Shown here one piece after another: positions 1 to 14,744 of a stretch of DNA of 64,000 bases (its first letter is position 1; the number at the start of each line of letters is the position of its first letter). The DNA comes from Escherichia phage FEC19. The notes under the pieces are model-generated. The model was given only the letters and a program-made list of their open reading frames with translations. It did not search any database and had not been told where the DNA came from. Position numbers and translations under genes: made by a program. Location of the stretch: sequence record MH816966; one strand, written 5' to 3'.

Positions 1-2
1 CT

Positions 3-311
3 ATCGTTACTCGCTTTACCCTCGAAAACGCAACCGCCGAAGTCCAGGGCGTTACGCTTACTTACGGCGAAATTCTCGCGAAATTCTCCGGCGTTCGCTT
101 AGGCGAAGAAATTAACGACGCGACGGTAATCGAGCAACTCGCTGCTTCTCGCTTAGAGCGCGACGAAAACGGATTCTTCGAAGTCGATGCGGAATTAAAT
201 TTATGCGGTAAAACGGCGTTTATTAACGAGTTCGAACTCGCCGTTTTAGTCAATTACGATAGCAAAGCTTATGCCTTCGCCCTCGAATTAATCGAAGACG
301 ACGAAGAGTAA
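3..311 (+). CDS. hypothetical protein, 5'-truncated at window edge, acidic C-terminus
   Basis: Open frame from window start to TAA at 309-311; CG-rich codon style unlike the bulk of the window. Confidence 0.45.
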   Translation: MVTRFTLENATAEVQGVTLTYGEILAKFSGVRLGEEINDATVIEQLAASRLERDENGFFEVDAELNLCGKTAFINEFELAVLVNYDSKAYAFALELIEDDEE

Positions 312-391
312 GAGAGGATTTTTAGAGCGTCGTGCGCGGCGCTTTAATAAAATTCTTTCGCGCCTAGCGCCCTAACAAATAGGAGTTTATT

Positions 392-1018
392 ATGGTTAGC
401 TTAAATCGCTTTTCTACTAGCGGCGACGTTATCGCAACTAAGACCGCCGACCTCGTTGCATTTTATAATGCAAATTCCGGCTCTAAGCCGATTAAGAAAT
501 TTGCGGACCGGCGGACCGCCGAGACTCGCGTAATCGCGCTAATCGAGTCCTTAAACGCGCTCGATGAGCCGTCCAACGAATCGCCCATCCCCGACGCGAA
601 GTCGCGTGAGGAAGTGTCCAGCGATGTAAAAACGCATAAGGCGCGTGCGGTCGTTAAAAAGGCCGAGCCGACTCAGGAAGAACTCGACGCGATGACCGAC
701 GAAGAGTATGAAGCATTCGTTAAAAGCGGCCTAAACGATAGTGCAAATTGCGTAGTGCAAAATGGAACTCCTTCCCATCGCCGTTCGAATAGCGAAGGTA
801 TTGCAAAAAGTTGGGATAATAAGGAAGTGGCGCAAAAGCGTCTCACCCGTAACGGCGTCATGGTCGAGGGAGTAGGCGAGTTCAAATCGGTCCGCGTAGC
901 GTTCGCCGCGCTGGGATTACCGGATAGCAAGCACATTCGCTTCCGCATGAAACTTAAGGAAGCTGGACGCTTGAACTTTGAGTTCGGCAACAAGTCCTAC
1001 ACCTTCCAGATCATCTAA
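392..1018 (+). CDS. hypothetical protein
   Basis: 208-aa ORF with AGGAG RBS at 379-383; contains two ATAGTGCAAAT-type motif copies in frame. Confidence 0.5.
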   Translation: MVSLNRFSTSGDVIATKTADLVAFYNANSGSKPIKKFADRRTAETRVIALIESLNALDEPSNESPIPDAKSREEVSSDVKTHKARAVVKKAEPTQEELDAMTDEEYEAFVKSGLNDSANCVVQNGTPSHRRSNSEGIAKSWDNKEVAQKRLTRNGVMVEGVGEFKSVRVAFAALGLPDSKHIRFRMKLKEAGRLNFEFGNKSYTFQII

Positions 1019-1023
1019 TCGAA

Positions 1024-1046
1024 TGGCGGCCCTTCGGGGTCGCTTT
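1024..1046 (+). terminator. stem-loop (TTCG loop) followed by T-run, putative intrinsic terminator after ORF 392..1018
   Basis: ggcccttcggggtc hairpin then gcttttc. Confidence 0.45.
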
Positions 1047-1068
1047 TCATAGTGCAAATTGGTGGCTT

Positions 1069-1332
1069 ATGAATACGCTTATTCTTATCGCTACGTTGTC
1101 CATCGGAAGCGGTCGCACCTTATCCCTTTACGACCATAGTGCAAATTGCGTTTACCCAACGCGCGTTGCGGCGATAGTTAATAGTGCAAATCGAATGCTA
1201 TTCGAGACTTGTTGGCGGGTTGATAACGAGAAAGGACGCATCGTCTTAGGTTATAGTGCAAATCTGCTGGTGGAGTCGTTCGACTGGACGGCTGAAGGTC
1301 GTAAATTGTTACGTAAAGTGACTAAAAGATGA
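1069..1332 (+). CDS. questionable ORF overlapping the motif array (three in-frame copies encode H/N/Y-S-A-N)
   Basis: 87-aa ORF; the DNA-level identity of the repeats suggests the region may be non-coding. Confidence 0.2.
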   Translation: MNTLILIATLSIGSGRTLSLYDHSANCVYPTRVAAIVNSANRMLFETCWRVDNEKGRIVLGYSANLLVESFDWTAEGRKLLRKVTKR

Positions 1333-1391
1333 CTTATAATAATACACTTTCTAACGCGTTTATGGTTGCAACCTTCCCAGTCGTATTACCG

Positions 1392-1431
1392 ATGGCCCTA
1401 GAAGTGGAGAAAACGTGTTCTAGGGCCATTT
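1392..1431. terminator. perfect 10-bp inverted repeat hairpin (ggccctagaa / ttctagggcc) between converging units, T-run on plus side
   Basis: Inverted repeat read directly; followed by attttat. Confidence 0.5.
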
Positions 1432-1446
1432 TATAGTGCAAATTGG

Positions 1447-1920
1447 CTAGTGGCGGGAGAATTGCTCACCCTCTTTGGCCGCCTCTCCAAAATCCTTGTA
1501 GAAATCATCCATGGAACGGCCCATTTTACTATTGCCGTTTTCATCAATCATTGTGATGCCGTAGATGATATTCAGTTCACGAATGGCATTAAGCTTGGCT
1601 GACGCCGCGACTTCTGGATCACGCACAAGCTTCACTAAATTGTGGATGGAACTCTTTACGCTCCACAATTCTTTCAATGGCATCTCTTCCATACGCTTTT
1701 TGTAGCGCATCTTGTAGTACGGATTGCGCTGAGTGCAGAGGATTCGCTGGCCAGTGTAGTTATCGGTCGCAACCTCCATGCCAAATACTAGTGCAAAAGC
1801 TGCGCGCATGTCATGTCCCTGAATAACAAGGTCAATGAACTCATCGAATAACGCCTGATTATGCTCTGCAAATCGTGGGTCTTCAAAGTCTTCAGGCATT
1901 GCTACATAATCTTGACTCAT
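1447..1920 (-). CDS. hypothetical protein (start moved to internal Met MSQDYV)
   Basis: ORF 1447..2115 trimmed; sigma70-like promoter (TTGAAT / TGTATAAT) at ~1965-1995 lies inside the longer ORF. Confidence 0.5.
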   Translation of the reverse strand: MSQDYVAMPEDFEDPRFAEHNQALFDEFIDLVIQGHDMRAAFALVFGMEVATDNYTGQRILCTQRNPYYKMRYKKRMEEMPLKELWSVKSSIHNLVKLVRDPEVAASAKLNAIRELNIIYGITMIDENGNSKMGRSMDDFYKDFGEAAKEGEQFSRH

Positions 1921-2139
1921 AGTGCAAATCCCATAGTGCAAATTAATAGTGTGAATTATACAATGATTGAACATTATATTCAAGTGCAGATTGATGTTCA
2001 AATTGGCTGTAAACGTACATAAATCATAGTGCTGAATGAATATCGGACCGTGGTGCGTGGTGTACTGTTTGATACGTATAAAAGAAATCCATCCCTTTCG
2101 CCGCTTGTTATGCAAATCAATGACTTAGCCGCAGCTGGC

Positions 2140-2450
2140 TGGTTGAAGCGTATCATGACGTATCATCCGTATCGCCGCAAGTCTTTGTTTTTATTTATAT
2201 CTTACGGATAATACGTATAAATATAAGTTTAGTATAAGTATGAGGATGTAGAAAAAAATTAATTTAAATTAATTCAAAATGGAGTTAATTGTTTTTTTCA
2301 AAGTTGTATAAAGTATAGCGGCGACGCGTATCATCCGTATCATCCGTAAGATGTACCACTGAACCCAGTCGCGGCGCACCATAGAAGTGTGTGGAGTGAA
2401 CTACGGATAGGTCCAAATCTTACGTCATTATACGCTTAAATTCTATGCGT
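2140..2450. repeat. composite intergenic element copy 1: multiple TACGGATGA/TCATCCGTA 9-mers in both orientations, AT-rich palindromic core, GCGTATAATGACGTA box
   Basis: A ~45-bp block (ataaagtat.gcgg..acgcgtatcatccgtatcatccgtaagat) is near-identical to 54420-54468. Confidence 0.8.
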
Positions 2451-2720
2451 AAGGTTAGCCAGCTAACTATATCTCCTTTTTAATTTCAAGCGGCAATCCC
2501 AGAGACGGCGCAGCCTACAGGCCCACACACCACGGTACACGCCCCAAAACCTAGTGATTCCCTCTCCAATACCACAACACCACAGTACAATATTCTTCCA
2601 AATTCGCACACATATTCAAGACACAAAAATCACGTCACAATACTCACACCCCCACCATCCTCTAATAGATTTACACAAATCAATCGCTTTATCCGATAAT
2701 AAAGACTCACAAGCAACAAG

Positions 2721-2744
2721 CAAACAAAAAGGGCCAATCGGCCC
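2721..2744 (-). terminator. intrinsic terminator after gene 2763..3215
   Basis: gggccaatcggccc hairpin; minus strand reads hairpin then tttttgttt. Confidence 0.6.
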
Positions 2745-2762
2745 TCTTAACATTAATCACTA

Positions 2763-3215
2763 TTAAAATATAAAATTCTTCACTCCAAGCCTTTTAAATT
2801 CCTTCCTTATCATCATATTAAACTTCTTCAATTTAGTTTTATTCATCCTTAAAGGATTGTAAGTGAGTACCTCTTCTATTACTTCCTTACGCATCTTTGA
2901 GCGCATATTAGTTAAGTAATAATTCTTGAACATATTAATAAGGTGATTGGCTTCCAGCTTAAGCTCAATTACTTCTTCCGATTCATCAAGCTCAAGTAAT
3001 CCTTTTTGCGTAAGAATATCTCTTAATATATTCTGGCACTTCTTGCAATCACCTTTACCTAAAAGCGAATCGATATAATCGCCGCTGACGCGCTCATCAC
3101 CGAAATATGTTGCGCGACCGCAAAGGCTTTGCACTTCTCCTTCGTCAAAGTAATGCGCACGATGGCCCCACTTCGGTATGGCCCAACCAGCGGCGATAAG
3201 CTTGTTACCCATCAC
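2763..3215 (-). CDS. hypothetical early protein
   Basis: 150-aa ORF in tightly packed minus-strand operon. Confidence 0.5.
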   Translation of the reverse strand: MMGNKLIAAGWAIPKWGHRAHYFDEGEVQSLCGRATYFGDERVSGDYIDSLLGKGDCKKCQNILRDILTQKGLLELDESEEVIELKLEANHLINMFKNYYLTNMRSKMRKEVIEEVLTYNPLRMNKTKLKKFNMMIRKEFKRLGVKNFIF

Positions 3216-3637
3216 CCCTCCTTAACGACGCGATAAGCAATGATGTCGCTGCCCTTTAACGCGCCTATATGGCCCCAGTGAAGATGGTCAGAGAGTCTTG
3301 ACAGTACTTTATCTCCTCCATTGCGCAGCTTGTATTCAACCATCTTCCCAGGCACCGGATTATTGCCACCAAACCACACGGTCCACGCTTCCTCCTTCGG
3401 CGCATCAACGTCCACGCCTATAGTAGCAACAACGTCATGCAACTGCTTAACGAGCGCCGATGCATCACGGACCTGCGAGCGTAATGCAACCAACTCGCGT
3501 TGCGCTTCACTGTATTTCGCTTCCAGCGCGGCGTAGTCCTCATATGCAACAAAACGTCCTTCGTGACTTTCTGGAACAGGAGTGATGTCGAAATCTTCTG
3601 TCGCCACATCGTATGTCAGGTCATAACGTTGTATCAT
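3212..3637 (-). CDS. hypothetical early protein; C-terminal domain paralogous to 4841..5341
   Basis: Shared C-terminal W.GG.NPVPGK...IIAYRVV motif. Confidence 0.55.
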   Translation of the reverse strand: MIQRYDLTYDVATEDFDITPVPESHEGRFVAYEDYAALEAKYSEAQRELVALRSQVRDASALVKQLHDVVATIGVDVDAPKEEAWTVWFGGNNPVPGKMVEYKLRNGGDKVLSRLSDHLHWGHIGALKGSDIIAYRVVKEG

Positions 3638-3854
3638 TTAACTTCTCCAAAATTTCAATAGCGATTTGCGTTTGCTTCTCAAGAGCAAGACGCAACATGT
3701 CAATTTGCAAGTCACGATGGGCCAGTTCAGCAGCGATGTCCGCCTTGCTGTAAAGTCCTTCATGCGTCATGGCAAAGATGTGGCGCGTATAATAGCCGCC
3801 CTCGTCGAGTTGCTCGATGTCACGCTGCCCGACTGCGTATTGCTTATCGGTCAT
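3621..3854 (-). CDS. hypothetical early protein
   Basis: 77-aa ORF, operon packing. Confidence 0.4.
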   Translation of the reverse strand: MTDKQYAVGQRDIEQLDEGGYYTRHIFAMTHEGLYSKADIAAELAHRDLQIDMLRLALEKQTQIAIEILEKLNDTTL

Positions 3855-4183
3855 GATGCATCCTTAGTTGGATAGAATTTAGGGTTGTTCTTATAGAATG
3901 CCTTGAGCCATGCCTTTGCTTCGGCGATGCTGCTGAACTCTTCCTTGGAGAGTCCGGTGCGGTCCTCGCCTGCGACCTTGAAATGGATGCGCACCTTGAG
4001 CCGAAGGTTGGTTGCTCTCGCGTAGTGGCCTTCATAGCCGTCATGGTTGAGACTTACTATCGCGGCGAGCATCTCGCAATCTTCTTTATCGGGATTGCCG
4101 CTGTAACAAGTCGGCCAGCCGCGACGTTGGAATGACCTGTATTGGCCTGTTGGCTCAGGGTCCACGTACCATTTCAATTTCAT
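3851..4183 (-). CDS. hypothetical early protein
   Basis: 110-aa ORF, start overlaps upstream stop. Confidence 0.5.
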   Translation of the reverse strand: MKLKWYVDPEPTGQYRSFQRRGWPTCYSGNPDKEDCEMLAAIVSLNHDGYEGHYARATNLRLKVRIHFKVAGEDRTGLSKEEFSSIAEAKAWLKAFYKNNPKFYPTKDAS

Positions 4184-4503
4184 TCGAATTTCTCCGTTTC
4201 TTTAATGCACTGTAACACTTCTTCAAGGCCCACTTCAACTTGAACATCGCTGTGACGCATCTCATCAATGAAGTCATCTTCACAGCGTATCGGGTTGTGC
4301 ATCGTTAATATTTCAAATACCTTGACGTGACTTACCAAAGGCAGAAGGTGCTTCCTTACTAGTTTGATCAAAACATCGTGGGAGTCTTTGTCTTTTAATT
4401 CTGATTCAATATTGTTTTCTTCACAGAAAAGTGACACAATGTCGCCATCCATGAATCCGAACTTAGATGCAAGCGAACGCGCCTGCAAGTGAAGAGTTTT
4501 CAT
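4180..4503 (-). CDS. hypothetical early protein
   Basis: 107-aa ORF, overlapping start/stop with neighbours. Confidence 0.5.
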   Translation of the reverse strand: MKTLHLQARSLASKFGFMDGDIVSLFCEENNIESELKDKDSHDVLIKLVRKHLLPLVSHVKVFEILTMHNPIRCEDDFIDEMRHSDVQVEVGLEEVLQCIKETEKFE

Positions 4504-4841
4504 TTGACCTTCTCCAATTGGAATCTTGCTTCTGGAAAGCCTGCGACAAACATGTCACGGCCCTCGACATCACGCTTCACGAACCAACGCATTCCGCTGA
4601 CTACCGTGAAGACAATTTGCCTTCCATCAATAATAAGTCCTTTTGCCTCATAAAGCAAATAAGTCTGACCGACTTTGAAGCTTAACATATCCTTGCTTGT
4701 GCTGGTGCACTTGAGCCGCCACTGGGTGAGATTTGATTCGCTTGCTTCGATGTCAACAACCTTACCGCGCAGCGACGATGTGCGCTGAAGCTCTTGCATT
4801 TGCTCGTCGAACGTGAGTTCACGGCCTTCTTGCTCTTCCAT
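4500..4841 (-). CDS. hypothetical early protein
   Basis: 113-aa ORF. Confidence 0.5.
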   Translation of the reverse strand: MEEQEGRELTFDEQMQELQRTSSLRGKVVDIEASESNLTQWRLKCTSTSKDMLSFKVGQTYLLYEAKGLIIDGRQIVFTVVSGMRWFVKRDVEGRDMFVAGFPEARFQLEKVK

Positions 4842-5341
4842 TATTCCTCCACGACGCGATAAGCAATGATGTCATAAACGCTTCCGTTGTGCTGCCACAG
4901 CCATCCTTCTGAATTGGATGAATAAGAAGACTTCTCTTCATTCCTCCACATCAACATGACCTTCTTACCAGGCACCGGATTCTTGCCGCCAGCCCATTCA
5001 ATCCAACCTTCATGAGATTCTTCGGGCTTCTTCAAGTGCTCATGCTTCTCACCGATGTGGGCGACAGGTTGACGGCTTCCGTAATAGAATGCCAACGCAA
5101 CGTCGTAGGATGGATGGGTGTTGGATAAGCAAATGTCATCACACCAAAGCTCCATGGTGCGCGACTTAAGCGTCATCATATTAGTATACCACTCGATGGT
5201 GTAGTGGTCGTTAAGGTTGCCGACAATATAGAAGTTGCGGCAAAAGTGCGCAGCGTCATCCGACTTCTCGCGGCTATAGCTTCTGATTGCGCCTGCCTTT
5301 ACAGCCATTTCCAATACTGCTTCGAGTTGTTCGATTTTCAT
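4841..5341 (-). CDS. hypothetical early protein; C-terminal domain paralogous to 3212..3637
   Basis: C-terminus WAGGKNPVPGKKV...DIIAYRVVEE. Confidence 0.55.
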   Translation of the reverse strand: MKIEQLEAVLEMAVKAGAIRSYSREKSDDAAHFCRNFYIVGNLNDHYTIEWYTNMMTLKSRTMELWCDDICLSNTHPSYDVALAFYYGSRQPVAHIGEKHEHLKKPEESHEGWIEWAGGKNPVPGKKVMLMWRNEEKSSYSSNSEGWLWQHNGSVYDIIAYRVVEE

Positions 5342-5583
5342 TTCTTTACTCCTAGTTCAATTTGATAGCCGATTGACAATTCATTTTCGCCGATGTTGAA
5401 TGCATCAACGGGCTGCGACATCACCGCCTTTAAATATACCTTCTTGCGCCGCTTTGCCTTGTACAAACAACGGTCGCCGCTGCGGTTGTAGATGTTAAGC
5501 CAGGTGCGCTTACTGATCTTATAAGGCACATGCGGCTTGATGAATAATAAACGGGCCTTAAGATTGGATGTCATAGTATTCAC
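5338..5583 (-). CDS. hypothetical early protein (basic)
   Basis: 81-aa ORF. Confidence 0.4.
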   Translation of the reverse strand: MNTMTSNLKARLLFIKPHVPYKISKRTWLNIYNRSGDRCLYKAKRRKKVYLKAVMSQPVDAFNIGENELSIGYQIELGVKK

Positions 5584-5882
5584 TTCCCTCCAAACGTTGC
5601 AACACGGATGTCGCGACGCGAAAAAGTCAGAACAGTGTCAAGGCTGCCAGCACAGGTTATGAATATATCGTCTGCAACAAGGTCATACCCGCCGACGCAA
5701 AGAATAAATGTGTCATCGCTATTCTTTAATAGCATGATTGCTGCAACACCGTCCTTTTTATTCTTAAAGAAGAATACTGGCTCACCGCCTTCTTGCGTCT
5801 CCTTGAACTCTTTAATTGCACCACAGTTCACGGCTTCTTGCAAAGCATTCAAAACCTTTTTCTTCATTGCTTCGTTACTCAT
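5580..5882 (-). CDS. hypothetical early protein (start at internal Met MSNEAM)
   Basis: AAAGGAGA RBS 7 nt upstream of ATG at 5880-5882; the longer ORF would overlap the promoter. Confidence 0.5.
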   Translation of the reverse strand: MSNEAMKKKVLNALQEAVNCGAIKEFKETQEGGEPVFFFKNKKDGVAAIMLLKNSDDTFILCVGGYDLVADDIFITCAGSLDTVLTFSRRDIRVATFGGK

Positions 5883-5910
5883 AATCAATTCTCCTTTGCT
5901 TGATGAACTA

Positions 5911-5957
5911 AGTATAATACAGGCAAATAAAAAGGCAAGCATTTAGCTCACCTTTTT
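5911..5957 (-). promoter_or_regulatory. terminator-promoter cassette copy A: hairpin plus U-run after gene 5961..6221, overlapping sigma70-like promoter (TTGCCT-16-TATACT)
   Basis: 28-bp core aaaaggcaagcatttagctcaccttttt identical to 7470-7497. Confidence 0.6.
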
Positions 5958-5960
5958 GAA

Positions 5961-6221
5961 TTAAATATTCTTCGCCTCTTCGTGGAGGCCGACCGACCTT
6001 AGTTTTCGTCGCAAGTAAGCTTTCTTTTCACTCTCCCGCCCGGCTGGAGTCACGCGCCAGCGTAATGTGTTCTCCAGATTCTTGCGTCGGTTGTGCTTGT
6101 CGAGTAGCTCTACCAGTGCCTTTGCGTCGTCGAGTGTTAATGCCACGGGCCGCGACCCATTAACGGCTTGTCGAAGCTTCCGCGCGGCAACGGCTAACTT
6201 AGTCATCGGACCTTTGTTCAC
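5961..6221 (-). CDS. hypothetical early protein (basic)
   Basis: 86-aa ORF. Confidence 0.5.
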   Translation of the reverse strand: MNKGPMTKLAVAARKLRQAVNGSRPVALTLDDAKALVELLDKHNRRKNLENTLRWRVTPAGRESEKKAYLRRKLRSVGLHEEAKNI

Positions 6222-6613
6222 GGCAACTCCTTATTCATAGGCGTGATAGACAACACCTTTACGTCTGTGATGTCACGGTTGTATTCGCGCTTGATTTGTA
6301 GAATCTGGGATTGGATGCGCGCGATAAAGTGCCACGTGATGCCTTCCTTAACGTTAATCCAGGCCGCAAGCTGAATTGAATCGATTTCACTTCTCAATGT
6401 CATCGGTCTGTAAGCAGCACTTTGTGCACCATAAGCAGGCTGTGTATCGTAAGCTGAATACTTGAATGACACCAAGAACATTCTTTCTTCAAGCTGACTC
6501 TCGCTATTAGGATTCTTATCACAATTAGCCATGTGTCGCAAGAACTCTTCATGCGGAAGATGCATCACATCGTGACAATACGGACAACGTTTCATTCTCA
6601 TTTTACACCTCAT
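6218..6613 (-). CDS. hypothetical Cys/His zinc-finger-like protein, paralog of 6603..6887
   Basis: N-terminal CPYCHDVMHLPHEEFLRHMANC motif. Confidence 0.5.
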   Translation of the reverse strand: MRCKMRMKRCPYCHDVMHLPHEEFLRHMANCDKNPNSESQLEERMFLVSFKYSAYDTQPAYGAQSAAYRPMTLRSEIDSIQLAAWINVKEGITWHFIARIQSQILQIKREYNRDITDVKVLSITPMNKELP

Positions 6614-6887
6614 GCAAGAAAGACAAAGATTTGATGCAGACTATTTCTTTTCCAGATACTTCCTTTATTGTATCCAGCAGGCTTTCATACGCCTTTTTGG
6701 TGATCACCATTTCTTTCGTGGTAACGATTCCTGTTGCGCCTGAGCCGTCGTCTGCTTCCGCGTGATAATGATAATAGTAACGCGTCGAATTTTCAGGATT
6801 AGCTTCACAAACGTTAACGTGATGTAAATATTCTTCAACAGGAAGTCGCATAGTTAACAAGCAATGTGGGCAGCGTTGCACCTTCAT
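6603..6887 (-). CDS. hypothetical Cys/His zinc-finger-like protein, paralog of 6218..6613
   Basis: N-terminal RCPHCLLTMRLPVEEYLHHVNVCE motif. Confidence 0.5.
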   Translation of the reverse strand: MKVQRCPHCLLTMRLPVEEYLHHVNVCEANPENSTRYYYHYHAEADDGSGATGIVTTKEMVITKKAYESLLDTIKEVSGKEIVCIKSLSFLHEV

Positions 6888-7120
6888 TTTGCATACTCCA
6901 TAGCATATTGCTGCAGCTTAAACGCAGCCTTTTGTAATTGTTTGTGACGTTCAAATAACGTCTCACGCTTTTCAGCAGGGCAATCGGCGCGAAGCATTGT
7001 TATGGCAACGCTTGACATAGCATTCAATAAAAACTGAAAACGAGACACCATTCTCAGCTCATTACGCTTGTTGAAAGACAGCTTACCCAGCGCGGCATTC
7101 ATAATTGCACCTCGACACAC
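6884..7120 (-). CDS. hypothetical early protein
   Basis: 78-aa ORF. Confidence 0.4.
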   Translation of the reverse strand: MCRGAIMNAALGKLSFNKRNELRMVSRFQFLLNAMSSVAITMLRADCPAEKRETLFERHKQLQKAAFKLQQYAMEYAK

Positions 7121-7416
7121 GATTCACTAGCCTTGAATCCCCAGCCTTCCAGACCGACTTCGCCGCAGTAACGCGCCATTGCACGCTCATCCAAGAACCA
7201 ACCGTGATATTGCTCTATGTACTTTGGTTTTTCTGAATAACAGTGAATGACTCCGTCGTCATCAATGGCCACGTAACGCGTGCCAGGCGCGACTGGTACA
7301 ACTACGTTTGGGTGGACGATTGGCCAAGGCTTGATGTGTACGGCTGTGTCTAACTTAACGTTTGGCACCCTTGAAAGGTCTTTGTAAGCGCCCTCGTCCA
7401 TTCCTAAGTAAATCAT
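7099..7416 (-). CDS. hypothetical early protein
   Basis: 105-aa ORF immediately downstream of cassette copy B. Confidence 0.5.
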   Translation of the reverse strand: MIYLGMDEGAYKDLSRVPNVKLDTAVHIKPWPIVHPNVVVPVAPGTRYVAIDDDGVIHCYSEKPKYIEQYHGWFLDERAMARYCGEVGLEGWGFKASESCVEVQL

Positions 7417-7448
7417 AATTCACCTCGCTTGTTAGTCTTGATGAAAAG

Positions 7449-7497
7449 AGTATAAGTATTGATAAAAGAAAAGGCAAGCATTTAGCTCACCTTTTTG
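7449..7497 (-). promoter_or_regulatory. terminator-promoter cassette copy B (TTGCCT-17-TATACT)
   Basis: Same hairpin core as copy A, directly after stop of gene 7502..7834. Confidence 0.6.
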
Positions 7498-7501
7498 ATA
7501 T

Positions 7502-7834
7502 TCATTTTACATAGTGGAGTAGGTCAATCTCTATCTCGTGCCTTGTCCTTGTTATCTTTGTATCACCCGTCCTGTGGGAGACTTGATGGAAGAAAGAGTC
7601 TTTGTGAGCGCATCGTTCAAACATCACGCTGGCAAATCTGCAGCCGCATATTGCATCAAGCTTTGCTCCGTTAGACAAAAGGTTGAATGTCAATACAGTG
7701 TTATCCATCCTTGCATTTTGCTTGATGCAGGACTTTAAGAAGGCGTAAGAATCGGCAAATGATTTGTGCCTTTTACAAATATCTTTAACCTTTTCACGCT
7801 CATGCGCGGCGAGTATCTGATCACGTGTCATCAC
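7502..7834 (-). CDS. hypothetical early protein
   Basis: 110-aa ORF. Confidence 0.5.
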   Translation of the reverse strand: MMTRDQILAAHEREKVKDICKRHKSFADSYAFLKSCIKQNARMDNTVLTFNLLSNGAKLDAICGCRFASVMFERCAHKDSFFHQVSHRTGDTKITRTRHEIEIDLLHYVK

Positions 7835-8070
7835 TGCACCTCTGTTATTCCGGTAATGCGAACGATTACGGTGTCATCTAAATTGAACTGCTGCCGCGCG
7901 ACGCGCTTGATGTCGTCCTTAAGGTCCGCAATCAACTCCCTTGTTAACACTGTACGCTCTGAGACGTCATATTGAACGTCAAAGGTATACTCGCCATAAA
8001 ATACCGCGCCATTGGGAAGTTGTACGACATAGAATGCCATGTACATTGCATTGATATAATCTTCCATCAT
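7831..8070 (-). CDS. hypothetical early protein (start trimmed to MMEDY to remove overlap)
   Basis: ATGA-type overlap with upstream stop. Confidence 0.4.
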   Translation of the reverse strand: MMEDYINAMYMAFYVVQLPNGAVFYGEYTFDVQYDVSERTVLTRELIADLKDDIKRVARQQFNLDDTVIVRITGITEVQ

Positions 8071-8414
8071 ACATTCTCCACGGGTCGACGAATGAGTTTG
8101 CGTAATCCTTCGGGCCAGACCTTCTTGATGACGGCCTTTGCTGGGCTGGATGAAAGCTTCTTCAGCTTCAATAGGACACATCCTTCATCATCGTTCGGTT
8201 GCACCTGGATAACGACTCGCGCTTGTCGGTCGATGACCATGACATCCCCAATGCGAATGTCTTTTACCAACACGCCCATCTCCTTCGTGCCGGATACGCC
8301 ATTGATGTGATCAAAACCTTTTCGCAGCGGTTTCATTATTTCTTCTCCTGCCATTTCTCTGACACGCTTCTTAATCTCTGCGCCAAACAACACTTCGTCT
8401 TTAACATGAGCCAT
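8067..8414 (-). CDS. hypothetical early protein (start uncertain)
   Basis: ORF 8067..8492 trimmed to limit overlap with 8401..8880. Confidence 0.35.
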   Translation of the reverse strand: MAHVKDEVLFGAEIKKRVREMAGEEIMKPLRKGFDHINGVSGTKEMGVLVKDIRIGDVMVIDRQARVVIQVQPNDDEGCVLLKLKKLSSSPAKAVIKKVWPEGLRKLIRRPVENV

Positions 8415-8880
8415 GGTCGAGTACCTTATAGAATTTAGTGGTGAATCGCTCATCGCCATAGTAGCGATACTTGCCGCCGCCAGTGTTATCAAACCTTACC
8501 CATTGAATTAAAGTCTGGTCAGCGTCGTGCGACACGTAAATCACCCGGCCATTAACAGGAATTGCGCCCTCTTCCGCGTCCTTGCTTATGATTGAATCGC
8601 CGTTCTTGATGTCAAATATGTCAATCGGCTTAAGGCGCGGCTTTTTATCAACATAAGTTTGAATAGGAACTCTTACGCAACGTGATTGATGATGGACAAG
8701 TCTTTCAACATGCCTTTTGGTTGGCGGTAAAATCTCGAATGACTCAACGCCTGCAAACTCGCTGTCGATAAATTTATTTATTTTCATCCTTAATGGAATT
8801 GGGACGTTACATTGACTTGTTGCTGCTAAAATAATTGCTGCTTCTGTTTTACTTAACATTAAAGGGCGATGAATGATCAT
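8401..8880 (-). CDS. hypothetical early protein
   Basis: 159-aa ORF. Confidence 0.5.
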   Translation of the reverse strand: MIIHRPLMLSKTEAAIILAATSQCNVPIPLRMKINKFIDSEFAGVESFEILPPTKRHVERLVHHQSRCVRVPIQTYVDKKPRLKPIDIFDIKNGDSIISKDAEEGAIPVNGRVIYVSHDADQTLIQWVRFDNTGGGKYRYYGDERFTTKFYKVLDHGSC

Positions 8881-9038
8881 AATTAACCTCTGATTTGTGA
8901 CACAAAACGTTTATAATGTTCTTTGGCTAAGACGCGTGCGCGCTCTTTCGTATGGCCGCTGGCTTCAAGTACGCGACGAAGCTGCTTGATTGCGTCTGCT
9001 TTACTAACCTTGTTATCGTTAAACTGAAATTTATTCAT
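8881..9038 (-). CDS. small basic hypothetical protein (51 aa, not in ORF track)
   Basis: Fills the gap exactly, with start and stop overlapping the neighbouring genes. Confidence 0.35.
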
Positions 9039-9256
9039 GCTTCACAAGCCGCCTTAATTTGACGTGGAGTAACGATGACTACTTCACCAACCAGTGACTT
9101 GTCATCTTCTTTTACCGTATCGATTCGAACGCGATAGTGATTGCGACCGCGTGAATCAGTAAGGTATTGATCCAGCTCAAGGATGGTGCCTGCGCGCATA
9201 TTCTGTCCTGACATCCAACGGATACGGTCGCCAGCCTTAAGAGTTTTCTTTCTCAT
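9035..9256 (-). CDS. hypothetical early protein (start trimmed to MRKKTLK)
   Basis: Longer ORF would overlap 9264..9542. Confidence 0.4.
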   Translation of the reverse strand: MRKKTLKAGDRIRWMSGQNMRAGTILELDQYLTDSRGRNHYRVRIDTVKEDDKSLVGEVVIVTPRQIKAACEA

Positions 9257-9263
9257 CTTCAAC

Positions 9264-9542
9264 TCACTTATAGTATTTAAACATAGCCGCGCAAAAATCC
9301 TGCATGGCATTCTTAATTTGCTTCTTGAACAACGGGTCATGCATCGTTTCAACATTCGTCTTAATCCGAACGTGACCGATAACATCAAACGCAGTTGCTG
9401 GCATCGGCTCATAGATTTCATGATCGTTCAAGATTATATCTAGTCTTGACTCAGAAATCACGGGATAATTCTTTCCAGCAGTAAACTGGTCATCAATCGA
9501 TAACGTGCACTTGACAAAGAATACTTTGTATGTAGTAATCAT
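9264..9542 (-). CDS. hypothetical early protein
   Basis: 92-aa ORF. Confidence 0.45.
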   Translation of the reverse strand: MITTYKVFFVKCTLSIDDQFTAGKNYPVISESRLDIILNDHEIYEPMPATAFDVIGHVRIKTNVETMHDPLFKKQIKNAMQDFCAAMFKYYK

Positions 9543-9748
9543 AGTGAGTCCTTCGGGCCGCAGTAGCGCCCGTCCAGGTAGCGGTCGTATTGGATTAAAG
9601 CGAATGTTTTCAACGAAAGGTTACGGCGCTTAAACAGGTGACCAGTTGATGGATTCTGCTCGTGCGCCGTTGGATAAAGGCGTGTCAGGTAGTGGATGAG
9701 GACTTGTAAAGCTCTACGTTGCTTTGTTATTCTCCCTTGTGTATTCAT
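9539..9748 (-). CDS. hypothetical early protein (alternative: overlapping ORF 9714..9938)
   Basis: 69-aa ORF; ambiguous. Confidence 0.3.
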   Translation of the reverse strand: MNTQGRITKQRRALQVLIHYLTRLYPTAHEQNPSTGHLFKRRNLSLKTFALIQYDRYLDGRYCGPKDSL

Positions 9749-9977
9749 GGTTGAATCTACCCTCTGTCAATATCCGGTCGTGGATTACTATACCAGTACA
9801 GCGCAGGCGGTTGGCATTGCTTCGCGCCTTTGCTGCTTGATGAGGATTGAACAAGCCAAACAAACTAGCCTTAAAGGCAAACTGGTAATATTTGATTAAA
9901 GTACTAAGTGCTAACTCAATCCTGTCTAAATTAATCATAATATCACCTCGTCAGAAAAGCAAATATTTTGATGATAA

Positions 9978-10625
9978 TTATCCTGTGGCCTGCATATTGC
10001 GTACATACTTCTGCTCTAATGAATAGATGAAGTCGGCGACCGTCAATCCTTTTGTGTGCCACTCATACATTGTGTAGCCTGTATTCAGGAAATAGCCGCG
10101 CACCTTGTCCATTGCTTCAGCTTCCTCCATGGAAGCCATCAGCGCGGCGACGTTATCATAAGAAGGCACAAATCCCTTCTTGCGTAGCGCATTGCGCAAA
10201 TCTTTAGTTCTGAATCCAATCTTGCACAGGTCATCACGGCCCGTTGAAGATGCAACCTTCGGCAGTGCAAGGAACTCTTTGAGGAACATCGAGATGTTCA
10301 GGTCGCCTGCATCATCAAGCTTCTGGAGTCGGTTGCGACCGCGACCCTTGAATTCACTTGCACGAGGGTGAGCGCCAAAACAATGCGCCCCTTCCAATTT
10401 AGGGTCGATGATCATCAAATCTTTGCCTACGCGCAATTCAACGTAGTAAAGGTATGTCTCATCGACAAGCTTCGTGCGTTTACAGGTGATGGAGTCCTTA
10501 TCGTACCCAAAACCACGCAACACGGTTGAAATCATCCGGTTCATTTCTTCTCCATGAACGTCACTCTCTTTGTTCAGTTCACCGAGATGTTGAAAGAATT
10601 TAGCGATGTTGATTGCTTTATTCAT
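9978..10625 (-). CDS. hypothetical protein
   Basis: 215-aa ORF; stop overlaps start of upstream NTPase gene. Confidence 0.5.
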   Translation of the reverse strand: MNKAINIAKFFQHLGELNKESDVHGEEMNRMISTVLRGFGYDKDSITCKRTKLVDETYLYYVELRVGKDLMIIDPKLEGAHCFGAHPRASEFKGRGRNRLQKLDDAGDLNISMFLKEFLALPKVASSTGRDDLCKIGFRTKDLRNALRKKGFVPSYDNVAALMASMEEAEAMDKVRGYFLNTGYTMYEWHTKGLTVADFIYSLEQKYVRNMQATG

Positions 10626-12295
10626 CAGAATTCATCCTTATCTCTTCCTAAAGAACGTTTGCGTTCAATAACCTTCTTCAAGAATTCAATATCTTCAGGG
10701 TCAGACTCGTCGCGGATAAGATACGCTAAGATAGTCATCAAATCAGAAATGTATTCCCCTGCTTCATTCTTAATCAGCGGCGTAAAGTAACCACGCTGGT
10801 TGCGATAGGTTGCAGGCTCAAATCCAAGCTTCGACATGTGCGGCGCAAGGGTACGTGAGAAAGGCGACTTGCCGCACTTAGCTCTGAATCCCATAGCGAT
10901 TGCACCACTGGTGATGTGCCAGCGTCCGCTGTGATGTCGGTCATAAGGCGCGGTGATGACGACTTCAACAAGGTCGTTGTCGACCATCTCGTCACGGATA
11001 ACGCCGCGAGCGCGTTCCATTTCGTTCTTGCTGAACTCAGTAAGCATACGAGATGTCTCACCGACAAAGGCGTTATAACCTGCTTCGCCGTGCTTCTCCA
11101 TCCACGCAGCGCACTCAGCCATCAGCTGCCAAACGTCTTCTTTCAAAGTTGAAAGGTCAGCTTGGAAGTCTTTAGACCAGTTCGGTTGCCCGTCCTTGTC
11201 GGCGAGTTGGCCAACAAAGATAGGATACACACGACGGTTGCCTGTATCGTCACGTTGCATGCCTGCGTATTCGTTGCCGTCCATGATAGCAATCCACTGG
11301 CGTGGTTTAACCTGCGTGTCTTCAAATTTGAAGTCCAGGTCATCTTCCGTCTTAGTCAGGAATGCTTTCATGTTTTCGATGTCGGCCTTTTTAAAGCCTG
11401 TCATCTCACCAACGTTCGCGATAATTGAGCGACCCGTAATAGCTCGCAAGAACGGGTTGAAGTTCTGCGCGGCCAAGTTCAACGGAATCGGTGTTGCGTG
11501 GCGGTCGTTCATAATAGCTTCGCAAAGTAGCTTACTAAAATAACTCTTCCCTGCGTTCTGGCCGCCGATGAGCGCAATGGAGATTGGCGCTTGACAGCCA
11601 GGGTTGGTCAGGCGGTTATAGAGCGATAGCCAAAAATACACACCGATTTGTCGGTTTAACTCTGTATCGAACGGTCGGAATAGCTCGATAAGGTATTTCT
11701 CGATGCGCGCAGTGCCGTCCCATTCAGGAAGCTTCTTGTAGAAGAAGTCCATCAGGTCGTCGCGCTGATAACGCATGGCCCATTCCTTATAGGATTGAGC
11801 GACCTGACGTGAGTTTGGGTTGGACAGACCTGCTGCGTCGACAGCGGCAACTATCTCTGTGACTTCCAATGTACGGTCGGTGAATGTTTCGCCGCGATGG
11901 TCGACTAAGCGTCCACGAAAAGTATCTTTGTGAGGGAATGGGACAATGCCGCTTCCCTTATCAAACAACGCGTCGAAAACCGCATAACGGTTCATGTCAC
12001 TCGTCCGGTCCGCCTGAAGAACAAAATCATCTTTCGTCGGTTTGTAGTGAGGGAACTTGATTACCTGAAGTGAGGCGAGCAAACGTGCTCTTTCAACCAA
12101 GTCTTCTTCGCCGTAGCACTCCATGCGCTCTGCATCTTTCTCAACAGCCTTATGCTGGAGGCTGATTTTAGCTCTGGTGCCTTGCTGCTCTGCCGCTTGC
12201 ATCTCTTCTGACACACCAGCGTCTTGAATTTCGTCAAAGATTGCACCAAATTCATCACCTGTATCCTCTGGAAGATTGTCATGTTCAATTGACAT
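10625..12295 (-). CDS. VirE/D5-like P-loop NTPase, putative replication helicase
   Basis: Walker A IALIGGQNAGKSYFSKLL; size and layout like phage/plasmid primase-associated helicases. Confidence 0.6.
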   Translation of the reverse strand: MSIEHDNLPEDTGDEFGAIFDEIQDAGVSEEMQAAEQQGTRAKISLQHKAVEKDAERMECYGEEDLVERARLLASLQVIKFPHYKPTKDDFVLQADRTSDMNRYAVFDALFDKGSGIVPFPHKDTFRGRLVDHRGETFTDRTLEVTEIVAAVDAAGLSNPNSRQVAQSYKEWAMRYQRDDLMDFFYKKLPEWDGTARIEKYLIELFRPFDTELNRQIGVYFWLSLYNRLTNPGCQAPISIALIGGQNAGKSYFSKLLCEAIMNDRHATPIPLNLAAQNFNPFLRAITGRSIIANVGEMTGFKKADIENMKAFLTKTEDDLDFKFEDTQVKPRQWIAIMDGNEYAGMQRDDTGNRRVYPIFVGQLADKDGQPNWSKDFQADLSTLKEDVWQLMAECAAWMEKHGEAGYNAFVGETSRMLTEFSKNEMERARGVIRDEMVDNDLVEVVITAPYDRHHSGRWHITSGAIAMGFRAKCGKSPFSRTLAPHMSKLGFEPATYRNQRGYFTPLIKNEAGEYISDLMTILAYLIRDESDPEDIEFLKKVIERKRSLGRDKDEF

Positions 12296-12349
12296 TTAAT
12301 CCTCCTGATACGGCTTTGTTATATTGTTGCATGGATATATCCTTTCAGG

Positions 12350-12381
12350 GTGCGGTAAATAAACGCCAGAAATCTGGCGTT
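12350..12381 (-). terminator. hairpin (aacgccag / ctggcgtt) with modest U-run
   Basis: Perfect 8-bp inverted repeat with aaat loop. Confidence 0.4.
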
Positions 12382-12431
12382 GTATATTAATATAGTAAAA
12401 CTCAGTTTAAAGCAATATAACTGGTGAACTA

Positions 12432-12722
12432 TCAGCAAGGAAATTGGTCAGCGTATGCCTTTCTCAATTTGTTTACTGACTGAACAGAATGAAGGTATTG
12501 GCAATCGGTGAAGATGCGGCGCAAACAATCCATAGAAGACAGGTCATCGTTAGTAACCACCAGAATCTCTTCCGAAGGGCAACCAGCTTCTTTGGCAATC
12601 TCATTAAGATTTGAGCCATTAATTTCTTCAACACGTTTCACCTCATCGATACCGTAAACATCAACGGCAACTTCGATGTCGTCATCGCTGATATTCTCAC
12701 CATAAAGAATTACAATATTCAT
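12432..12722 (-). CDS. hypothetical early protein (acidic)
   Basis: 96-aa ORF. Confidence 0.5.
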   Translation of the reverse strand: MNIVILYGENISDDDIEVAVDVYGIDEVKRVEEINGSNLNEIAKEAGCPSEEILVVTNDDLSSMDCLRRIFTDCQYLHSVQSVNKLRKAYADQFPC

Positions 12723-12823
12723 TTACTCACCCCTGCCAAATAATGTGCCATATCCAATACATATAATAGCCCCAGGATGATAACAAGGGAAATGATTAAT
12801 GTGTATTTCTTTACGGCTTTCAT
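12719..12823 (-). CDS. small hydrophobic peptide (34 aa, one predicted TM), not in ORF track
   Basis: MKAVKKYTLIISLVIILGLLYVL...; stop overlaps next start. Confidence 0.3.
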   Translation of the reverse strand: MKAVKKYTLIISLVIILGLLYVLDMAHYLAGVSK

Positions 12824-12841
12824 ATGTATCTATACCTAAAT

Positions 12842-13105
12842 TTACTGTTGAGGATCACCGATGGAGTCTGTCGCATCCCATTCAACGCGTGCTGTACGTT
12901 CTGCTGGTGGACAACCTTCTCCGGCGTAAAGCTCCACCACACCTTCGTGAGAGCAGCACTGGCACTCTACAAGGTCGCCGTCCTCCCAGGCACCTTCTTC
13001 TGCATTGCGATGCTGCCGCACCTTGATCACATCGCTTGCACAGTTAGGACAAGTCGAAAGACTGCTTGTGACGTTCCAAACGAACTCGTTGCGGAAAGCA
13101 CCCAT
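12842..13105 (-). CDS. hypothetical zinc-ribbon protein (CPNC...CQCC)
   Basis: Start trimmed to MGAFRNEF to abut upstream stop. Confidence 0.45.
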   Translation of the reverse strand: MGAFRNEFVWNVTSSLSTCPNCASDVIKVRQHRNAEEGAWEDGDLVECQCCSHEGVVELYAGEGCPPAERTARVEWDATDSIGDPQQ

Positions 13106-13106
13106 G

Positions 13107-13397
13107 CTACACCTCTTGATCTCGCTGTTGTTGAATCGCGGCTGCAGCTTCTTCAAAATTGACGGGCTCAACGGTAAATGTCGCGCTGACAGTGAAGTTG
13201 TTAATCGTCAGCAAAGTATTGAAACGCTCTGCATTCAGATTCATCGCCACGTGCGTCGACACATTAAGGATTGCACCAACGACTTCTTCCACCGCATAGC
13301 CTTTAAACAGAGGAAGAATTTCATTGACAAGCTTCAGCTCGTTCTCCACGCGAAGTTTTTGTGCTTCTTCAGTGGTCATCATTTTTGGTTCGTTCAT
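13107..13397 (-). CDS. hypothetical early protein
   Basis: 96-aa ORF. Confidence 0.5.
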   Translation of the reverse strand: MNEPKMMTTEEAQKLRVENELKLVNEILPLFKGYAVEEVVGAILNVSTHVAMNLNAERFNTLLTINNFTVSATFTVEPVNFEEAAAAIQQQRDQEV

Positions 13398-13399
13398 TT

Positions 13400-13546
13400 T
13401 TATTCCTTAACAAATTCAGAGTAGTGTTTGGCCGCAGCCGATTGGTGGTGAGCCATGACACCTTCAAGGGTGGGAAGCTCTACGTGCTTAGGTTCTAACG
13501 AATTTAACAGACCTTCAAGCTCGATGTTCAATTCTTCGCTTTGCAT
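13400..13546 (-). CDS. small hypothetical protein (48 aa, not in ORF track)
   Basis: GAGGTGA RBS upstream of ATG at 13544-13546. Confidence 0.35.
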   Translation of the reverse strand: MQSEELNIELEGLLNSLEPKHVELPTLEGVMAHHQSAAAKHYSEFVKE

Positions 13547-13604
13547 AAATCACCTCTGCTTCAGTTCATAAAATGATTATAGTTGCTAGAAAAATAAAAG
13601 CAAA

Positions 13605-14687
13605 CTATTTTATGCCACCTGCGCGACGATTTATCATATCAAGTTGATTCTCAATATAAGGCATGACTACTGCTTCAACAAAAGCGGTCCAGCCTTTCTT
13701 GCCTTCACCTTTCCGGTGACAGTCGTGAGCGCAACCGAAAACGAATTCATGTTCAGCGCCAGGGATTGGGCCTCGAAAATAAGCGCCGTATGGGTCGCCG
13801 TTGGTGTGCTCTTCACCCCAAGGACAGATGATGCGGCATTTACCTGACATGTTTTCAACCACATCGCCATCGGACCCTTCGCCCATCTTATTGCGCGCAA
13901 GGATTTGCTGGGCTATTTTATACCAAACAGCATCATATTTGTATTCGTCAACGTCGATTTGAATTTCACGCTTTTGCGGCATAACGACGTGGAAACCGAA
14001 GGCTTGGCAAATCTCTTCGATTGTGTAGCGCAAGGAATAGTCTGCATGGACAAGTCGGCAGCGGAACGGGTCGCCGTTCTCATCGACATATTTATAGGGG
14101 CCGTCGTGAGTCACACGCTTGTTGTTGATGCACCCAGGAACACGGCCCACGCGCGTCACGTCTTTAATCGTGTTGTCGCCGCCCTTCTTGAGTACCATGT
14201 TTACGAAAGACCCAAGGAATGCTTTGAACTGAATAAGATGGTCAATCGGTTCTTTAAAGAAGTACCACAGCTGATGGTTGTTCGGCGAAGTCTCGACGAT
14301 GACGGTTGGTTTTAGGCGCTCGAAAAAGAATTCCAAATCTAAATCGCCCTTTGACCCTTTACCGTGCCCAATGTCGTCGACCATCATCGCCATGCCATGA
14401 CCAAAGGCCGATTCCGTGCGCCAGTATCGCATCTCGCCTGTCTTTGGGTTGGGAGACTTACGCATTGAACTTATGCAGGCGTAACCGTTCTGATGTTGCA
14501 TCAGCGGCTTGCCAAGCTTCCAAGGCTTAGGCCAGAAGCTGCTGTTAATCTTTTTGCCGCGCTCGTCAGTCTGCACTGTTGCTTCAGGCGCAAACACGGT
14601 CATGACGCGTTCATCTTCTGGAATGCCTCTTTGGAGTTCCGTCAAAAACTCTTCGATTATTTTTGCTTCTTCTCTTAAACTAGCCAT
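13605..14687 (-). CDS. archaeo-eukaryotic-type primase (prim-pol-like) with C-terminal Cys/His zinc motif
   Basis: Ordered AEP-like motifs: MVDDIG (DxD), TSPNNHQLWYFF (sGxGxH-like), KDVTRV; C-terminal CPWGEEH...CAHDCH. Confidence 0.55.
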   Translation of the reverse strand: MASLREEAKIIEEFLTELQRGIPEDERVMTVFAPEATVQTDERGKKINSSFWPKPWKLGKPLMQHQNGYACISSMRKSPNPKTGEMRYWRTESAFGHGMAMMVDDIGHGKGSKGDLDLEFFFERLKPTVIVETSPNNHQLWYFFKEPIDHLIQFKAFLGSFVNMVLKKGGDNTIKDVTRVGRVPGCINNKRVTHDGPYKYVDENGDPFRCRLVHADYSLRYTIEEICQAFGFHVVMPQKREIQIDVDEYKYDAVWYKIAQQILARNKMGEGSDGDVVENMSGKCRIICPWGEEHTNGDPYGAYFRGPIPGAEHEFVFGCAHDCHRKGEGKKGWTAFVEAVVMPYIENQLDMINRRAGGIK

Positions 14688-14716
14688 CTTTCTTTCCTTC
14701 GGTGATCAATACCTGC

Positions 14717-14744
14717 AGTATAATATTGAGTGATACAAAGTCAA
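14717..14744 (-). promoter_or_regulatory. sigma70-like promoter (TTGACT-16-TATACT) for the primase operon
   Basis: Read from reverse complement upstream of ATG 14687. Confidence 0.5.

Follow-up and report, generated by a model that had tools for sequence, protein, structure and literature searches.

The left end of a 64,000-nucleotide stretch of Escherichia phage FEC19 (sequence record MH816966; this whole stretch is referred to as the window) carries two genes, open reading frames (ORFs) 3..311 and 392..1018, which a first reading made from the letters alone (the sequence-only reading) had singled out for a CG-rich codon style and had taken to suggest a horizontally acquired or functionally distinct segment. 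Both ORFs exist as described and correspond to gp103 and gp102, respectively, of the Wifcevirus phage vB_EcoM_WFH (WFH), the window edge truncating the former four nucleotides past its ATG. The window shares 97% identity with WFH, albeit in reversed orientation relative to the WFH record; wifceviruses are virulent myoviruses of E. coli and Shigella with genomes of ~68 kb. Comparisons used L001, the right end of WFH in reverse complement, in which window position p corresponds to L001 position p+1421. Both ends of the WFH record share the same sequence over exactly 3701 bp, constituting a direct terminal repeat (DTR), and a terminal repeat of ~3.7 kb has been reported for Wifcevirus (Korf 2019, PMC6563267); positions 1-2280 of the window, which carries one DTR copy only, are thus assigned by homology to WFH to this 3.7-kb DTR, placing the left physical genome end at window position ~2280. 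The DTR amounts to 3673 bp in phage Mansfield (PhageTerm prediction), 3566 bp in Serratia phage MTx (PhageTerm) and 3603 bp, as an exact repeat, in Pantoea phage Kyle.

The composition of the left end is distinct from the genome average, as the sequence-only reading had proposed. Observed/expected (o/e) ratios at positions 1-1050 were 1.90 for CpG, 0.96 for TpA and 0.48 for the complementary pair TG/CA, as compared to 1.12, 0.67 and 1.16 in the whole window, and TG/CA fell to 0.24 in the first 300 bp. In a sliding-window scan the first 1-kb window had the maximum CpG o/e (1.94; mean 1.11±0.145), while 300-bp windows starting at positions 1-401 had a TG/CA o/e of 0.24-0.45 and deviated by 5-8 standard deviations on a combined index, as compared to 1.185±0.131 (minimum 0.65) for windows starting beyond position 1500. 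TG/CA depletion is strongest at positions 1-700 (0.24-0.57), weakens to 0.7-0.9 at 700-1330 and has faded by ~1330. The checks of GC content (0.503 at 1-1050, 0.463 in the whole window) and of the genome-referenced codon adaptation index (CAI; z of -0.7 for ORF 3..311 and -1.2 for ORF 392..1018) revealed no outlier, so that neither a GC shift nor a generic codon bias describes the anomaly, which is specific to dinucleotides. Its primary feature is a strand-symmetric depletion of TG/CA that is compensated by CG and TA, as the loss of TG/CA by single transitions generates exactly the CG and TA excess observed; the earlier reader saw the weaker half of a real and strong anomaly.

At the level of codons, the share of Leu, Val, Ala, Thr, Ser and Pro codons that contain TG or CA is 0.024 in ORF 3..311 and 0.125 in ORF 392..1018, against 0.307±0.058 (z of -4.9 and -3.1), and CpG at codon 3|1 junctions reaches 0.314 and 0.183, against 0.091±0.026 (z of +8.5 and +3.5). 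The codon style noted earlier holds for CGC (0.61 versus 0.36), GCG (0.42 versus 0.23) and TTA (0.38 versus 0.11), all of which are enriched in the two ORFs, whereas most 'TCG' triplets fall out of frame (xTC|Gxx in 23 of 34 cases) and AAT is barely enriched. CTG and TTG together account for 0.08 of Leu codons versus 0.44, CTC and TTA being used in their place, and NCA and NTG codons are nearly absent. As compared to 31 long reference ORFs, CpG within codons is unchanged (14 and 18 per kb versus 13 and 18), whereas it rises to 89 versus 33 per kb at codon junctions, where TpA likewise amounts to 52 versus 19 per kb; TG and CA are reduced 3.5- to 8-fold at every codon position. The location of the CpG excess at codon junctions, and not in CGN or NCG codons, argues against a tRNA or codon style. 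Translational adaptation, by which codon use would be tuned for rapid early expression or tRNA supply, would suit genes that lie behind strong promoter-like sites, yet non-coding DNA and the junctions between codons carry the main signals, TTA and CTC stand in for CTG, the Leu codon that E. coli prefers, the CAI is unremarkable and the depletion is strand-symmetric; we consider this explanation scarcely credible, and the junction and intergenic data led to its rejection as the main cause.

The depletion is a property of the DNA as such. TG and CA are equally depleted in genes of either strand and in intergenic DNA; the depletion at amino-acid-determining codon positions is as strong as that at junctions, is stronger in coding than in intergenic DNA, and runs 200-400 bp past the last terminator. 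Among trinucleotides CAG/CTG shows the heaviest depletion (7-fold), GATC does not occur in 2 kb of the island, and CTAG, nearly missing elsewhere in the genome, occurs at random level. Promoter-like sequences of the form TTTACT-N16/17-TATAAT (TATACT for gp104) lie upstream of gp103, gp104 and gp105, the gp103 site at -99..-72 falling just outside the window, and the -35 box TTTACT of these three sites equals the consensus TTGACA stripped of both its TG and its CA. The purge is evident at every codon position, across codon junctions, in the spacers between genes and behind terminators, and in the -35 boxes of the three predicted sigma70-like promoters, and it has reshaped the small acidic proteins of the island, which are nearly devoid of Met, Cys, Trp, His and Gln. 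As the codons of these five amino acids require TG or CA, the residues are scarce, together making up 1-4% of gp103, gp104 and gp105 versus 10.5% in the reference ORFs, and the island gene products of WFH, Kyle and MTx are 90-115 amino acids in length with isoelectric points of 4.0-4.4. The depletion in gp102 is only intermediate (0.64) because the protein is constrained.

In WFH the anomaly extends 1.4 kb past the position of the window edge through the leftward genes gp104 and gp105, in which TG/CA o/e is 0.06-0.3 (0.08-0.5 over L001 300-1800). The island thus occupies ~2.7 kb, the right-hand two thirds of the 3.7-kb DTR, with a TG/CA o/e of 0.06-0.6 on both strands, and stops at the right-hand physical terminus of the virion DNA. 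In relatives its upstream limit lies no more than 100-400 bp from the right DTR boundary: in kaset, a circular assembly, it starts abruptly at this boundary; in Mansfield TG/CA rises abruptly from 0.33-0.66 to 1.24 precisely where the repeat ends, at position 3673; in Kyle it ends sharply at the DTR end; and in MTx it lies inside the DTR predicted by PhageTerm. The suggestion of a functionally distinct segment was accordingly borne out, in that the two ORFs are part of the DTR and lie within a compositional island bounded by a physical genome end. On its inner side the island fades through gp102 and gp101, and the small terminase gene terS, although inside the same DTR, has a normal composition (TG/CA 1.35-1.44), as part of a stretch of terS plus ~1.2 kb of the repeat with normal or elevated values (1.3-1.6). 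The features of the locus, and two gene copies of MTx used for comparison, are collected in the table.

Table. Features of the window left end and paralogues of gp102 in Serratia phage MTx (positions are those of the window).
Feature	Position	Strand	Remarks
Part of DTR	1..2280		97% identity to WFH; repeat cut by the window edge, ~1.42 kb more upstream of position 1
Window-internal half of TG/CA-depleted, CpG/TpA-enriched island	1..1330		defined by dinucleotide o/e
gp103-like ORF	1..311	+	first full codon at 3; ATG and one base outside the window edge
gp102	392..1018	+	208 amino acids, isoelectric point 8.9; phrog_4730; intermediate TG/CA 0.64
EcoP1 site AGACC	441..445	+	head-to-head pair with inverted copy at 1878-1882, inside DTR
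ATAGTGCAAAT motif array	739..1943	+	8 exact TAGTGCAAAT copies and variants, on one strand
Intrinsic terminator hairpin	1026..1043	+	GGCGGCCCTTCGGGGTCGC followed by T-run; 3' of gp102; annotated in WFH (L001 2447-2464)
gp101-like ORF	1069..1332	+	87 amino acids, basic; last gene of rightward unit; near-normal composition
Small terminase TerS	1447..1920	-	PDB 7uxe 'Small terminase', E=9e-33; phrog_4783; agrees with Mansfield annotation
MTx gp006	inside island		TG/CA o/e 0.25; Met, Cys, Trp, His and Gln 3.0%; Leu, Val, Ala, Thr, Ser and Pro codons with TG/CA 4%
MTx gp016	outside island		TG/CA o/e 0.99; Met, Cys, Trp, His and Gln 8.1%; Leu, Val, Ala, Thr, Ser and Pro codons with TG/CA 28%

Comparison with relatives separated position from ancestry. 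Homologues of gp102 were found to be syntenic in 354 phage records, including Pseudomonas Pbunavirus and phages of Serratia, Pantoea, Erwinia and Xanthomonas. The slot of gp103 is occupied in kaset by a paralogue of gp105 that has the same composition (TG/CA 0.17, CpG 2.29), and Kyle and MTx carry an island at the same place of the DTR, with TG/CA down to 0.12, despite diverged gene sets. MTx provides a natural comparison as it encodes two paralogues of the gp102 family, a short one at 2714-3220 within the DTR island and one at 6483-7517, of 344 amino acids with an N-terminal extension, outside it. The difference between the MTx copies, the core status of gp102 and the matching style of the replacement gene in kaset establish that the style is imposed by position, and not by gene family, donor or tRNA pool. 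The island is conserved in three enterobacterial phage genera (Wifcevirus, Kylevirus and Myosmarvirus); no island was present beside the gp102 homologues of Pbunavirus Ab27 and Xanthomonas phage XcP1, and of the genomes examined only those of the long-repeat enterobacterial branch carry it.

These comparisons also bear on horizontal acquisition, that is, the arrival of the segment from a donor genome or mobile gene pool of this composition, which had been suggested by the sequence-only reading and for which the atypical composition and the variability of the gp103 slot among wifceviruses might speak. Horizontally transferred islands are patchy in distribution and carry the composition of their donor; this island belongs to a syntenic neighbourhood in which gp102 is a core gene, recurs in three genera with diverged genes, lacks mobility genes, extends its style to promoters and non-coding DNA, and leaves its mark on one MTx paralogue and not on the other (0.25 versus 0.99). 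We know of no genome with a genome-wide TG/CA o/e of 0.1-0.3. It resembles horizontal genomic islands in its sharp local deviation of oligonucleotide usage, but it is syntenic and vertically inherited, with a composition that depends on position, and acquisition from elsewhere is considered very improbable.

A regional mutation or repair bias of the terminal repeat, which would turn TG/CA into CG or TA without selection through duplication by strand displacement during packaging, end resection and annealing or heteroduplex repair between the repeat copies, has more in its favour: the anomaly stays within the DTR and stops at its end, it decays gradually inwards, in T5, too, CpG changes stepwise right at the DTR boundary, and a test on polymorphisms (described below) gave no significant signal of selection (p=0.21). 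However, the normal to elevated TG/CA of terS and its surroundings indicates that membership of the repeat is insufficient; two context-dependent transitions would be needed, T to C before G and G to A after T; the depletion at amino-acid codon positions equals that at junctions and exceeds that in intergenic DNA, which is the opposite of a neutral pattern; and enteric T:G repair (Vsr) makes CCWGG, which is depleted here. Given the normal composition of terS within this repeat and a depletion at coding positions that is at least as severe as in spacers, a repeat-specific mutation bias is less likely, and we regard it as a doubtful explanation.

Several further causes were considered and rejected: an island of the CpG-methylation type, as the genome background is not CpG-depleted; deamination of single-stranded DNA, which would generate TG and affect the two strands unequally; Vsr/Dcm repair, which would generate CCWGG; avoidance of transcription pause sites, as CG is enriched; and RNA-level toxins, as the depletion is strand-symmetric and reaches untranscribed DNA.

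Selection on duplex DNA is the reading suggested by a purge that is strand-symmetric, tied to position and shared across genera, and that extends to promoters, non-coding DNA and the codon positions that determine amino acids; selection against TG/CA-containing sequences would appear to maintain the purge. The positional, DNA-level nature of the island is well supported, and we hypothesise that its purpose is anti-nuclease. Our favoured reading, to which we incline while placing it just short of an even chance, is that the island represents first-entering pre-early DNA, comparable to the first-step-transfer (FST) DNA of T5, which has been selected to lack TG/CA-containing nuclease targets. According to this scheme packaging would start on the terS side, as the gene order suggests, such that the island would be packaged last and ejected first; it would be transcribed at once by host RNA polymerase, yielding pre-early and probably anti-defence proteins; and, as for T5 FST DNA, it would be the sole part of the genome exposed to motif-dependent nucleases of the host. 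DNA written without TG/CA would be relieved of every target with CAG/CTG, CAC/GTG and similar triplets, which would cover most sites of enteric type III and type I systems and those of Dcm/EcoRII, at the cost of the five most dispensable amino acids only. TG/CA is indeed the cheapest complementary dinucleotide pair to give up, with the five rarest amino acids lost, and its omission removes outright 53% of possible hexamers and 38% of REBASE specificities. The island has sites for fewer REBASE specificities than every control segment (50% versus 60±2%, z=-4.7).

Published restriction phenotypes are consistent with this reading. T5-like phages are restricted only via sites in the FST repeat (PMC10644984), and in Autographiviridae the motif content of the leading region decides sensitivity to restriction-modification (RM) (PMC12455610). 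In the BASEL study wifceviruses were resistant to EcoCFT_II and very sensitive to EcoP1_I, though the sites of the two are equally numerous (~90 each), and were immune to EcoRI, EcoRV and EcoKI without any known protection. The EcoCFT_II site is probably CACAG, this being the only 5-mer that matches the published counts of 92 for Bas99 and 51 for Bas01. The DTR of the wifcevirus Bas99 contains no CACAG (5.0 expected), no EcoRI, EcoRV or EcoCFT_I site, a single EcoKI site and one Dcm site (9.1 expected), and six copies, in both orientations, of AGACC, a motif without TG or CA. With no copy of the presumed EcoCFT_II site and six EcoP1 sites in the repeat, EcoCFT_II resistance and EcoP1 sensitivity are as the rule for T5-like phages would predict, and the published RM phenotypes match the natural site content of the Bas99 DTR in a correlation that spans six systems. 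The island itself is free of GATC, of EcoRI and EcoRV sites and of CACAG, and retains hardly any CCWGG. As a broader proposition, it is possible, though we would not call it probable, that enterobacterial Lindbergviridae-like myoviruses write their first-entering 2-3 kb without TG/CA, in genes, promoters and spacers alike, such that it is invisible to a prevalent class of TG/CA-dependent nucleases, whether of the host or of their own early making; with the same reserve, this would imply a T5-like staged infection, a protection of the whole genome that is still to be identified, and the acidic TG/CA-free proteins as effectors. No description of such a TG/CA-free composition was found in the literature searched, and the island would represent an extreme variant of the avoidance of targets in leading regions.

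A number of points weigh against this proposal. The presumed first-entering end is deduced only from the terS-then-terL gene order combined with the rule that the DNA packaged last leaves first. The generic benefit is modest, at only 16% fewer REBASE specificities, and a generic drive to avoid all restriction sites was not retained as a cause given the small effect (50% versus 60% of REBASE sites). Palindromes centred on CG or TA are abundant, with 25 TCGA, 24 CGCG and 24 TTAA in 2 kb; the avoidance of 6-bp palindromes beyond that explained by dinucleotides, at 0.54-0.75 in islands versus 0.78±0.15 in controls, is not decisive; and AGACC (EcoP1) sites are not avoided. The leading region of T7 is without a TG/CA purge and T5 FST DNA displays a CpG shift only, indicating that restriction avoidance does not generally require a purge. 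Among single-nucleotide polymorphisms (SNPs) in the island, scored in well-aligned columns only of four wifcevirus genomes, 22 of 64 change TG/CA status as compared to 43% expected (p=0.21), a test that is underpowered. No TG/CA-specific agent was identified, and the purge may in fact be driven by one that host or phage encodes.

The last consideration leads to self-immunity, by which an early nuclease or DNA-binding factor of the phage itself, with a loose specificity for TG/CA, would act while only the first-entering repeat is inside the cell. This would fit the near-absolute, dinucleotide-level character of the purge better than a diversity of host enzymes does, and would account for both the tolerated CG/TA palindromes and the restriction of the trait to one lineage. 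T5 offers a precedent, as it is reported to break down host DNA in an A1-dependent manner while only FST DNA is in the cell. Nevertheless, no nuclease is annotated or was detected among the island or neighbouring early genes, T5 FST DNA is not TG/CA-depleted, and degradation of host DNA by wifceviruses is undocumented in the literature searched; self-immunity is accordingly judged unlikely.

Three known systems resemble the island, each of which differs from it in some respect. The T5 FST repeat likewise is a long DTR with divergent sigma70-driven (here predicted) pre-early units of small function-unknown genes; T5 resists RM unless sites lie in the repeat, a rule that the Wifcevirus phenotypes also fit; and it too displays a compositional step at its boundary (CpG o/e 1.31 inside versus 0.76 outside). 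In a scan of T5 positions 1-16000 this CpG step, a milder counterpart of the effect in the island, was located at the repeat boundary/injection-stop region, ~9.5-10.2 kb. T5 differs in that TG/CA is not depleted (0.94 versus 1.02). It is moreover a siphovirus whose repeat measures 10 kb and whose two-step injection is proven, while the island phages are contractile-tailed. Furthermore, the Wifcevirus DTR also carries terS and the ATAGTGCAAAT array, and no homologues of the T5 pre-early proteins A1, A2 and Dmp were found among DTR proteins by Pfam, PHROG and NCBIfam searches. The leading region of T7-like Autographiviridae is alike in that early promoters for host RNA polymerase are followed by a small and very acidic first gene product (Ocr), and in that leading-region motif content decides RM sensitivity (PMC12455610). 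It differs in that the leading 6 kb of T7 has an ordinary TG/CA of 0.9-1.25. The terminal repeat of T7 is short and non-coding. Classical restriction-site avoidance shares with the island the removal of short targets from phage DNA by selection, but acts on specific 4-8-mers genome-wide, whereas here a whole complementary dinucleotide pair is purged from 2-3 kb only, with five amino acids lost, and CG- and TA-containing palindromes are commoner in the island.

If the proposal is correct, the island would represent an unusually clear case of selection at the DNA level that overrides protein composition, five amino acids being nearly gone from a defined segment. It would offer a concrete and testable answer to the puzzle posed by the BASEL study, namely EcoCFT_II immunity versus EcoP1 sensitivity as well as EcoRI, EcoRV and EcoKI immunity, and would suggest that biology of the T5 style, in which only the leading repeat is vulnerable, exists in myoviruses related to the therapeutic Pbunavirus phages. 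The signature, a TG/CA o/e below ~0.35 beside a repeat boundary, could serve to locate first-entry modules and new anti-defence genes in other phages.

With regard to the genes themselves, gp103 specifies a protein of 102-104 amino acids with an isoelectric point of 4.07, a net charge of -15 and only four Met, Cys, Trp, His or Gln residues. Being small, strongly acidic and located in the DTR behind a predicted promoter of early type, it shares these traits with anti-restriction DNA mimics of the Ocr/ArdA type, and it may be considered a candidate pre-early anti-defence protein that resembles, by analogy, the DNA-mimic inhibitors encoded in leading regions. Searches with gp103 gave no match in Pfam, PHROG, NCBIfam or PDB, those with gp104 and gp105 none in PHROG, and none of the three proteins has detectable sequence similarity to Ocr. 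Of the two proteins named by the sequence-only reading, gp103 is restricted to nine wifcevirus records, with distant homologues in Kyle (gp006) and MTx (gp004), while gp102 belongs to a widespread family. The latter was assigned to phrog_4730 (E=6.1e-89, residues 4-208 aligning to profile positions 2-200 of 204), a function-unknown family that represents a core protein of Pbunavirus-like myoviruses, and had no match in Pfam, NCBIfam or PDB; the 120 matches listed in a large protein search with gp102 were all wifcevirus copies of 98-100% identity, and public assemblies contain more than 300 wifcevirus contigs. Single-sequence AlphaFold2 models of ORFs 3..311 and 392..1018 had a confidence score (pLDDT) of 39 and were unusable. 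Within ORF 3..311, window positions 67-88 consist of a perfect tandem duplication of the 11-mer GCGAAATTCTC.

The sequence-only reading had also connected the anomaly to a motif array. The ATAGTGCAAAT array spans the 3' part of gp102 and gp101 and runs up to the start codon of terS, with variants at 466, 753, 1789 and 1943; it is separate from the anomaly, as it lies beside terS, in the fading part of the anomaly rather than at its peak. The remainder of the 64 kb contains just one copy with a single mismatch, and the array is conserved in Mansfield. Its adjacency to terS makes it a candidate and probable small-terminase (pac-like) recognition array.

The window contains five Chi sites (GCTGGTGG) as compared to 1.24 expected, a number reached in one of 100 shuffles; the Chi site at 1266-1273 lies in the DTR just inside the island and is oriented for RecBCD entering from the terS-side (left) end. 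A secondary patch at window positions 31400-31800, covering a gene end and an intergenic terminator region, has a CpG o/e of 1.7-2.0 and a TG/CA o/e of 0.65-0.76. Two intergenic regions, 2140-2350, which straddles the left DTR boundary (~2280), and 54230-54500, have in common a 9-bp unit, ATCATCCGT/ACGGATGAT, that occurs in tandem pairs around an extremely AT-rich core, and a near-identical block of ~45 bp (tataaagtat.gcggc.acgcgtatcatccgtatcatccgtaagat); ATCATCCGTATC is present in 7 copies as compared to 0.3 expected. Both regions are mildly CpG-rich and TG/CA-poor, and they may represent origins, an element of the injection-stop type or regulatory regions. Finally, ~60-140 bp from the physical right end of WFH (L001 60-140), the sole part of the distal repeat that retains TG/CA carries three spaced copies of (A/T)AATGATT(C/G)G(A/C), namely cgAATGATTCGAcg, ataATGATTCGAaa and ctAATGATTGCGtg, which may constitute an end-recognition or end-protection site.

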